A stretch of 64,000 bases of DNA from a virus (IMGVR_UViG_2690316121_000006), one strand, 5' to 3'; counted from the stretch's first letter, positions 63,147 to 64,000 are shown. The notes: a model not told the origin generated them from the sequence alone. Translations and numbers: made by a program.

Positions 63147-63258
63147 TATATTGCCCTCCAGCTACCTTACCTAATGTCTGTTGGTATATTGGCTTTGATA
63201 ACATTTTCGTCCGTGTATTCATTTATATACTCATTAGTTTCAATGTATTATATAGAAC

Positions 63259-64000
63259 ATGAAGCGTGCCTATAAATATCGATTCTATCCAACTCCCGAA
63301 CAAACCGAGCTATTAGCCCGGACTTTTGGGTGTGTGCGTTTTGTCTATAACAGCCTCCTTCGCTGGCGCACCGATGCGTACTACGCACGCCATGAGAGGG
63401 TCGGCTATGCACAAGCCAGCGCCAAATTAACGGCACTGAAAAAAGAACCAGAATTCGCTTGGCTGAATGACGTTTCCTGCGTCCCCCTCCAGCAGTCTCT
63501 GCGCCACCAACAAACGGCTTTTGCTAACTTTTTCGCCGGGCGTGCTGCATACCCAGTTTTTAAGAGCAAGCGGCATAAACAGGCCGCAGAACTAACTGCC
63601 AGCGCATTTAAATACCGTGACGGCAAGCTGTACATGGCAAAGAGCAAAGAGCCGTTAGATGTTCGCTGGAGCCGTCCGTTGCCGTCTGCTCCATCCACTG
63701 TCACTATCACCAGGGATGTTGCCGGACGATATTTTGTATCCTGTCTCTGCGAGTTTGAGCCTGTATCACTGCCGATCACCGTTTCCACGGTCGGCATTGA
63801 TATTGGTTTAAAAGATTTGTTCGTCACCGATACCGGTTTTAAAACTGGCAATCCTCGACACAACGCTAAATACGCGAAGCGATTAGCAGTGTTACAGCGC
63901 AGATTGAGCAAGAAACAAAAAGGCTCAAAGAACCGCGCCAAAGCACGTTTAAAGGTTGCCCGCCTCCACGCGAGAATAGTCGATTGTCGGATGGATAACC
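63259..64000 (+). mobile_element. tnpB: IS200/IS605-family tnpB (OrfB, RuvC-like RNA-guided nuclease), 5' portion; ORF runs off the window end
   Basis: hand translation from ATG 63259: MKRAYKYRFYPTPEQTELLARTFGCVRFVYNSLL ... VGIDIGLKDL (RuvC-I motif); not in ORF track because no stop in window. Confidence 0.75.

Follow-up and report, generated by a model that had tools for sequence, protein, structure and literature searches.

How a transposon-type gene came to lie directly at the start codon of a phage head gene, and why it is kept there, is the question raised by the last 854 nt of IMGVR_UViG_2690316121_000006, a viral sequence analysed here over 64,000 nt (the window). A reading frame on the plus strand starts with the ATG at 63259 and has met no stop codon by 64000; its 247 codons had been taken, from the sequence alone, for the beginning of an IS200/IS605-family TnpB. 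This reading frame is real and far beyond chance. The encoded fragment matches Pfam HTH_OrfB_IS605 with residues 1–44 (63259–63390, E = 1.6e-21) and the N-terminal three-quarters of Pfam OrfB_IS605 with residues 170–246 (E = 2.1e-15), the RuvC-I segment beginning at 63766. Against the NCBIfam model guided_TnpB (cut-off 100), the fragment scores 201 bits and a full copy 358 bits. The RuvC-I motif VGIDIGLKDL, which was already recognised in the hand translation, is located at residues 178–187 (63790–63819). D181 (63799–63801) aligns with the first RuvC aspartate of ISDra2 TnpB.

The gene runs off the window, as the sequence-only reading had noted, and only codons 1–247 of 376 are present. The window holds the left 854 bp (63147–64000), two-thirds, of an element of 1,295 bp; everything past 64000, including the right end, the omega RNA, and the RuvC-II and RuvC-III motifs, is inferred from copies with 0.1–0.2% divergence. 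The two reference copies, in plasmid p50579417_1 (L004) and in the chromosome of E. coli ST2747 (L003), each have one mismatch to the window in the 854 shared nucleotides; window positions equal L004 positions plus 59149. The nearest sequences to the window (E. coli genomes, plasmids, and phages) are 98.9–99.7% identical. The full-length protein is WP_001312284.1 (376 aa), and 246 of the 247 residues of the window fragment are identical to it. The L004 copy has all three Pfam domains (HTH_OrfB_IS605, the OrfB_IS605 RuvC domain, and the zinc-ribbon domain TNB) and a full copy scores 394 bits on the IS200_TnpB model. The RuvC-II glutamate, the RuvC-III aspartate, and a CxxC...CxxC zinc ribbon, all beyond codon 247 where the window stops, are found in copies with one or two mismatches to the window. 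The earlier worry that the frame might close just past 64000 and lack these motifs is thus not borne out by the near-identical copies. The best structural match is 9yyg, a designed TnpB-like nuclease (E = 4.6e-77), in which GVDLG, VEDL, and HDRDENAA align with GIDIG, VESL, and HDRDINAA. The ISDra2 TnpB structures 8bf8 and 8exa match residues 3–365 (E = 6.6e-77). The domain order is the same as in ISDra2 TnpB of Deinococcus radiodurans (PDB 8bf8, 8exa, and 8h1j), and the RuvC D-E-D residues and the zinc ribbon are aligned in 9yyg, which scores the same as the ISDra2 chains. No frameshift is found in nine copies, which show nine synonymous and nine non-synonymous variable sites; selection on tnpB within the P1 lineage was judged from these 18 sites. 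In two large IncY plasmids, pL9-1 and EC0885, tnpB is truncated at the window equivalent of 63919 (L086 about 6420) by a resistance region with lnu(G).

The element is almost certainly a tnpB-only member of the IS200/IS605 family, IS1341 group, related to ISEc42 and gipA. It has the TnpB/OrfB domains of this group and lacks tnpA, a target-site duplication, and terminal inverted repeats. The upstream sequence, put at about 110 bp in the earlier reading, measures 112 nt from the left boundary to the tnpB ATG (63147–63258), and in L004 the right end, where the element ends in GTCAA, comes 52 nt after the stop codon; this leaves no room for tnpA. A tblastn search across the 64-kb window, with the IS200C TnpA as the only probe, gave no Y1 transposase homologue (best E 1.4), in agreement with the proposed tnpB-only organisation. 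Subterminal hairpins, which the family has at both ends, are present at the right end in L004 and absent at the left end in the window. We read the missing hairpin as the decay of a family member, not as non-membership. ISEc42 is likewise a tnpB-only IS200/IS605 element of ~1.3 kb, and its name is attached to the P1-borne insertion by the annotation of one record (vB_EcoM-673R5, ON470615.2). In public records the element is already machine-annotated as TnpB or ISEc42, in dozens of P1-like plasmids, and is uncharacterised.

The insertion point is located at the junction of the portal gene prt and pro, the gene of the head processing protein (339 aa; 62127–63146, minus strand). The pro reading frame is intact, as seen in the ORF list, in the P1 annotation, and in the RefSeq annotation of filled and empty plasmids. 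Its start codon, CAT at 63144–63146 on the plus strand, is both the end of P1 homology and part of the insertion target. In megablast searches, P1, P7, and other punaviruses match the window only to about 63158, and vB_EcoM-673R5 is the one phage record that matches through 64000; the paper on it describes a predicted prophage, not an isolated virion. P1 (NC_005856) has an uninterrupted prt/pro junction, the empty site for which a comparison had been proposed. With the insertion point marked by a slash, the empty junction in P1 reads GTCAT/TATCGTTTCC and the filled junction reads GTCAT/TATATTGCC...GTCAA/TATCGTTTCC. Read over a longer distance, the P1 junction is ...CATCAGTCAT/TATCGTTTCCCTCTTTAAAG, and filled genomes have ...CAGTCAT/TATATTGCCCTCC...(1,295 bp)...CAATTGTCAA/TATCGTTTCCC. 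Neither a target duplication nor inverted terminal repeats are present at the filled junctions. The P1 comparison on its own gives a 3-nt (TAT) ambiguity in the start of the element (63147 versus 63150). Alignment of ~30–40 relatives from other genera places the boundaries after GTCAA in the right end and after (N)TCAT in the left flank, and the element therefore starts at 63147. The target motif and predicted TAM, (G)TCAT (63143–63146, plus strand), lies directly left of the left end; it was identified by comparing P1 with filled junctions and from the flanks of relatives, and its last three bases are, on the minus strand, the start codon of pro. The P1 site has a G at position -5, where the clade usually has a T. 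The element had been described as lying upstream of the head morphogenesis gene. The insertion is indeed there, but it is not merely upstream, as it abuts the pro ATG and falls inside the last codons of prt.

The element is antisense to the late prt-pro operon and leaves the coding sequence of pro unchanged. The native P1 leader of pro is AGAGGGAAACGATA-ATG; in filled genomes, it is the reverse complement of the left end, GGAGGGCAATATA-ATG. The sequence itself shows a Shine-Dalgarno-like CCCTCC at 63154–63159 (GGAGGG on the minus strand), which lies 7 nt upstream of the pro ATG and replaces the AGAGGG of P1. This GGAGGG would be predicted to act as the ribosome-binding site for pro. As prt in P1 ends 6 nt into pro, the C-terminus of its product is altered. 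The last two prt codons are replaced, and in full-length copies the protein ends in ...GNDIDNCPP where the P1 form ends in ...GNDND; the new stop codon lies inside the right end of the element. The protein gains four residues, and the annotated gene grows from 1,710 to 1,722 nt. Terminator-like sites (hairpin plus T-run) are enriched in L004 3900–5450 (8 versus 1.8 ± 1.6 in shuffles). Seven of the eight face the minus-strand direction, along which late prt-pro transcripts have to cross the IS, and this raises the possibility of polarity on pro.

This position at a start codon is common to the clade. Of 27 independent insertions whose left-end boundary is clear, 23 have a TCAT in which CAT forms the ATG of an ORF that runs leftward for at least 80 codons; the ATGA background in the same flanks is 28% (P about 1e-9). 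The predicted TAM (N)TCAT reads ATGA(N) on the other strand, and the docked genes are divergently oriented (L005–L075 and L100). Many of the docked ORFs begin at what we take to be true N-termini (MiaB-, CyaY-, GrxB-, and PdxB-like proteins, and signal peptides). The start codons of three docked genes are borne out by annotation in RefSeq or GenBank: those of pro, of ybhB (343 E. coli genomes), and of the gpU homologue in Gifsy-1. In 20 of 42 cases, versus a background of 6% (P about 1e-13), the native Shine-Dalgarno sequence is found displaced to the DNA immediately past the right end, and the reverse complement of the left end reads GGAGG, 7 nt, and then, across the junction, ATG in most clade members. 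As judged from these sequences, clade elements sit exactly between the leader of a gene and its ATG and bring putative substitute signals. The docking pattern reflects either target choice or survivorship of harmless insertions. Insertion at so low a cost, in which the element would bring its own substitute ribosome-binding site, is akin in spirit to that of the self-splicing IStrons. A search of the literature on ISEc42, the TCAT/TTCAT TAM, and IS605-type start-codon insertion found no description of this clade behaviour.

Two relatives in well-known contexts have the same arrangement. The ybhB-bioA relative (~81% nucleotide identity; L005 5891–7185) lies close to the lambda attachment region; it is found in 343 of 5,426 E. 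coli genomes, and its left end abuts the annotated ybhB start codon. The gipA gene of Gifsy-1 (NC_010392; junctions at 1690–1693 and 2980–2984 of L100), which has for long carried the annotation of a Peyer's-patch virulence factor, is a tnpB that belongs to the same clade. It encodes 376 residues, like the P1-borne gene, with 78.9% nucleotide identity over 739 nt, and is likewise antisense in a late morphogenesis operon, inserted between the gpZ and gpU tail-gene homologues with the left end at the ATG of the downstream gene, gpU. The right-end TCAA in Gifsy-1 recreates the overlapping TGA of gpZ and leaves the protein unchanged (CGA TGA to CGT TGA). The upstream stop codon is thus restored exactly in Gifsy-1, whereas the P1-borne insertion adds four residues to the prt product.

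The left end (63147–63258, plus strand), delimited by the P1 empty site and the family alignments, is non-coding, 112 nt long, and 32% GC. A subterminal hairpin was to be expected here. None is found in the window (DNA fold MFE -3 kcal/mol, z +1.09), and the fold is the weakest among 55 loci. The left ends of relatives carry a GC-rich hairpin, for example CCCCGGCC-TTTA-GGCCGGGG. The chromosomal ybhB-bioA relatives keep a GC-rich, strongly folding left end and Gifsy-1 keeps CCCCGGCC-TGAA-GGCCGGGG, whereas the P1-borne element has lost the hairpin. The left end is identical in all nine aligned filled copies. Excision of IS200/IS605 elements needs both ends (Meers et al., preprint 10.1101/2023.03.14.532601). 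This requirement, together with the lost hairpin, makes it probable that the element is immobile and would no longer be moved by a TnpA transposase. A weak sigma-70 promoter-like sequence (TTTATA-18-TATTAT; 63222–63251, plus strand), found by a consensus scan on L004 and mapped to the window, ends 7 nt before the tnpB ATG. An outward promoter-like sequence (TTTATA-18-TATAAT, 10/12; 63247–63276, minus strand) points toward pro and was identified by consensus match alone. Matches in the promoter scan are no more numerous than in shuffles, and neither a tnpB promoter nor an outward pro promoter is established by it. No recognisable Shine-Dalgarno sequence precedes tnpB (63222–63258); relatives keep TGTGAA just upstream. 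This suggests that the tnpB mRNA may be leaderless or weakly translated.

The last ~180 nt of the element form a structure that is common to 42 relatives, with 38 consensus pairs, 18 of which show compensatory changes. In the terminal stem, one-off double changes (G-C, U-A) are seen, which probably come from the divergent right end of this element. For the right end of L004, the fold has a z of -4.2. As in ISDra2, the RNA structure overlaps both the 3' end of tnpB and the right end, and in place and behaviour it is what one would expect of a TnpB omega RNA; we treat it as a putative one. A search of the full element against Rfam gave only a sub-threshold RAGATH-18 match at the right end (21.8 bits versus 44.9, E 0.43), and the end of the window gave no Rfam match. 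The right-end structure has thus been kept by compensatory changes while the left-end structure has been lost.

Filled sites occur in 38 of 5,426 complete E. coli genomes, at identities of at least 98.8%, with one copy each and always next to pro. They are found in P1-like contexts only, mostly plasmids of ~96–100 kb. P1-like plasmids of E. albertii and E. fergusonii (PLSDB) have the filled site as well, and IMG/VR adds three contigs with the element. The empty prt/pro junction is found in P1, in P7, and in 451 E. coli genomes. The sequence-only reading had suggested a strain-specific insertion; with the same site filled in three Escherichia species, this suggestion fails, and the insertion marks a lineage amounting to about 8% of Escherichia P1-like elements. 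In replicons that are not P1-like, the nearest relatives show ~80% nucleotide and 87% amino acid identity, with nothing found above 90% nucleotide identity; relatives are multi-copy in Serratia and Klebsiella genomes. In the E. coli ST2747 chromosome (L003 7292–7760), an integrated P1-like remnant keeps pro and the IS. There, prt is cut ~130 bp beyond the right end and is followed by a Ref-family pseudogene and host-like genes, a rearrangement.

Neighbouring intervals also vary among P1-like plasmids. Other IS200/IS605-type elements were gained independently in the lyz/lydD-pro interval (window ~61840–62127): two plasmids carry an IS200C tnpA (L004 2405–2863 is one location) and pPE15-92K carries a 404-aa TnpB (L085 2716–3930), and the window has neither. 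The TnpB of pPE15-92K was considered as a second insertion of the present element and rejected, as it is a different protein at another position. The interval upstream of ssb (window ~58950–60620) is a variable cargo slot. It holds DUF2829 and a hypothetical gene in the window, an anti-phage dGTPase in L004 and L091, an ompC/ompD porin in L085, L086, and L096, and isaA in P1.

The history of the insertion was followed in nine filled loci. Copies of the IS (1,295 nt) differ from each other at 0–5 positions, with one outlier at 14; the differences are 8–23 in pro (1,020 nt) and 16–25 in the prt region (1,750 nt). IS copies are 5–10 times less diverged than their flanks. In the flanks, the filled plasmids are not monophyletic and are as distant from each other as from empty plasmids. 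A near-flank haplotype at -219/-189/-147/-99 is present in seven of nine filled copies and in none of seven empty sites, and differs further out. Two filled copies have 'empty-type' haplotypes right up to the junction. From the divergence and the haplotypes, it follows that the IS is younger than the divergence of the backbones and has moved between them with short flanking tracts. Given a left end that lacks the hairpin, homologous recombination is the only plausible route of this spread.

The TnpB/omega-RNA unit may have persisted after transposition ceased. In the TnpB model, a guide is transcribed from DNA beyond the right end, and the nuclease cuts the donor joint, where the TAM directly precedes the sequence matched by the guide (Meers et al., 10.1101/2023.03.14.532601). 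We adopt the TAM/TEM logic and the TnpB homing framework of the same work (10.1101/2023.03.14.532601), with a TAM inferred from transposon flanks. The predicted guide would be 5'-UAUCGUUUCCCUCUUU..., read from beyond the right end, and the empty sites read GTCAT followed by TATCGTTTCCCTCTTT in all seven sampled. The guide would thus match the IS-free P1 allele beside the predicted TAM GTCAT, and the occupied allele, with GTCAA in place of the TAM, would be spared. The nuclease of an IS-bearing genome would cut the IS-free P1-like genomes it meets. Repair from the IS-bearing copy would copy the element in, that is, homing; otherwise, the rival genome would be lost. The predicted guide has no match elsewhere in the window with up to three mismatches. 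Among E. coli records, empty junctions are dimorphic 2 nt to the right of the insertion point (L101/L102 versus L002 3249), with GTCAT/TATCG in 269, counted where the 60-mer is identical, and GTCAT/TCTCG in 153. This A/C difference changes D to E in prt and falls on the second base of the site that TnpB is predicted to target; it may make the allele resistant to cleavage or be a polymorphism that arose by chance.

Known systems offer both parallels and differences. ISDra2 has a TAM that is also 5 nt long, reportedly TTGAT, and similar to the predicted (N)TCAT here. ISDra2 has tnpA and functional left- and right-end hairpins, whereas the P1-borne element has neither tnpA nor a left-end hairpin. 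In the ISGst TnpB and IscB elements of Geobacillus stearothermophilus (Meers et al.), a TAM precedes the left end and a transposon-encoded motif (TEM) almost identical to it stands at the right end, as is the case here, and TTCAT is the TAM of the ISGst5 IscB (Meers et al., 10.1101/2023.03.14.532601). The guide of ISGst likewise comes from DNA beyond the right end, and its donor joint is the nuclease target by the same logic. ISGst elements, however, are autonomous and mobilised by TnpA; here, only the nuclease half appears to survive. Homing of ISGst is between sister chromosomes, whereas the homing proposed here would be between phage-plasmid genomes.

The pattern of spread fits TnpB-driven homing between P1-like genomes. 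Ordinary recombination is a serious rival, as P1-like genomes are mosaic and this alone could yield low IS divergence beside high flank divergence, with no nuclease involved. The element would then be an inert hitch-hiker that inserted once, lost its mobility, and has been carried passively, with TnpB and omega RNA irrelevant and the divergence contrast a product of mosaic recombination. A lost left-end hairpin, the absence of tnpA, a single site in every record, clearly mosaic P1-like flanks, and thin dN/dS evidence are all as this account would have them. It has more difficulty with a tnpB that is intact in nine of nine aligned copies from three species, with compensatory changes that preserve the right-end structure alone, with a near-flank haplotype that accompanies the IS on different backbones, and with a guide and TAM geometry that fits the empty allele exactly. 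We regard passive carriage as a possible reading that falls below an even chance. The retained reading frame, the retained right-end structure, and the pattern of IS and flank divergence speak for a homing or exclusion function, to which, as an active function, we give somewhat less than an even chance. A wider version of this proposal is an immobilised TnpB/omega-RNA 'gene drive' of phage-plasmids. It would cut IS-free prt/pro junctions in co-resident or superinfecting relatives and spread by gene conversion across the backbones of three Escherichia species, while clade ends that mimic gene-boundary signals would make the insertion nearly harmless. We consider this wider version rather unlikely.

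Other origins and functions fare less well. If the IS were still active, with TnpA supplied in trans and repeated independent insertion at the P1 site, the multi-copy relatives in Serratia and Klebsiella, the IS200C tnpA that adjoins it in some plasmids, and the short conserved target TCAT would all be in keeping. Every copy, however, is single, at the same site, and at least 98.8% identical, with an identical left end in all nine copies that lacks the hairpin required for TnpA excision; with many TCAT sites in P1, repeated use of one would be unlikely. Continued transposition is thus very improbable. Even less probable is an exapted, nuclease-dead regulator that represses its target gene and does not cut DNA, as do TldR proteins. 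The element is phage-borne, like the described TldR proteins, and its guide region overlaps the 3' end of prt and the former pro ribosome-binding site; yet full-length copies have the complete RuvC D-E-D set and zinc ribbon, the protein is not truncated and reaches 394 bits with the IS200_TnpB model, and the cis site next to the guide has GTCAA, not a TAM. That the frame is a native gene of the P1 lineage, the objection raised in the sequence-only reading, has only its location in a phage genome to recommend it. The empty sites in P1, P7, and 451 E. coli genomes refute it, and the precise boundaries and the canonical TnpB protein leave it hardly conceivable. Overall, an IS1341-type insertion at the start of a P1-like pro gene, with persistence and possible homing of the putative TnpB/omega-RNA unit, is likely to be the best explanation of the locus.

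As annotation, the finding is routine: the element is of an ordinary kind in an unusually neat position. Its interest lies in a natural dissection of two halves: that for transposition (tnpA and the left-end hairpin) has gone, and that of the RNA-guided nuclease remains. With the IS-free allele of a phage as well known as P1 for its predicted target, homing or exclusion between phage genomes becomes testable by P1 genetics. If the gene-drive reading were true, the A/C dimorphism at guide position 2 could be a resistance allele. The insertion lies inside the essential late prt-pro operon of P1-like phage-plasmids, which are spreaders of resistance genes, and it may affect whether P1-like elements still make phage.
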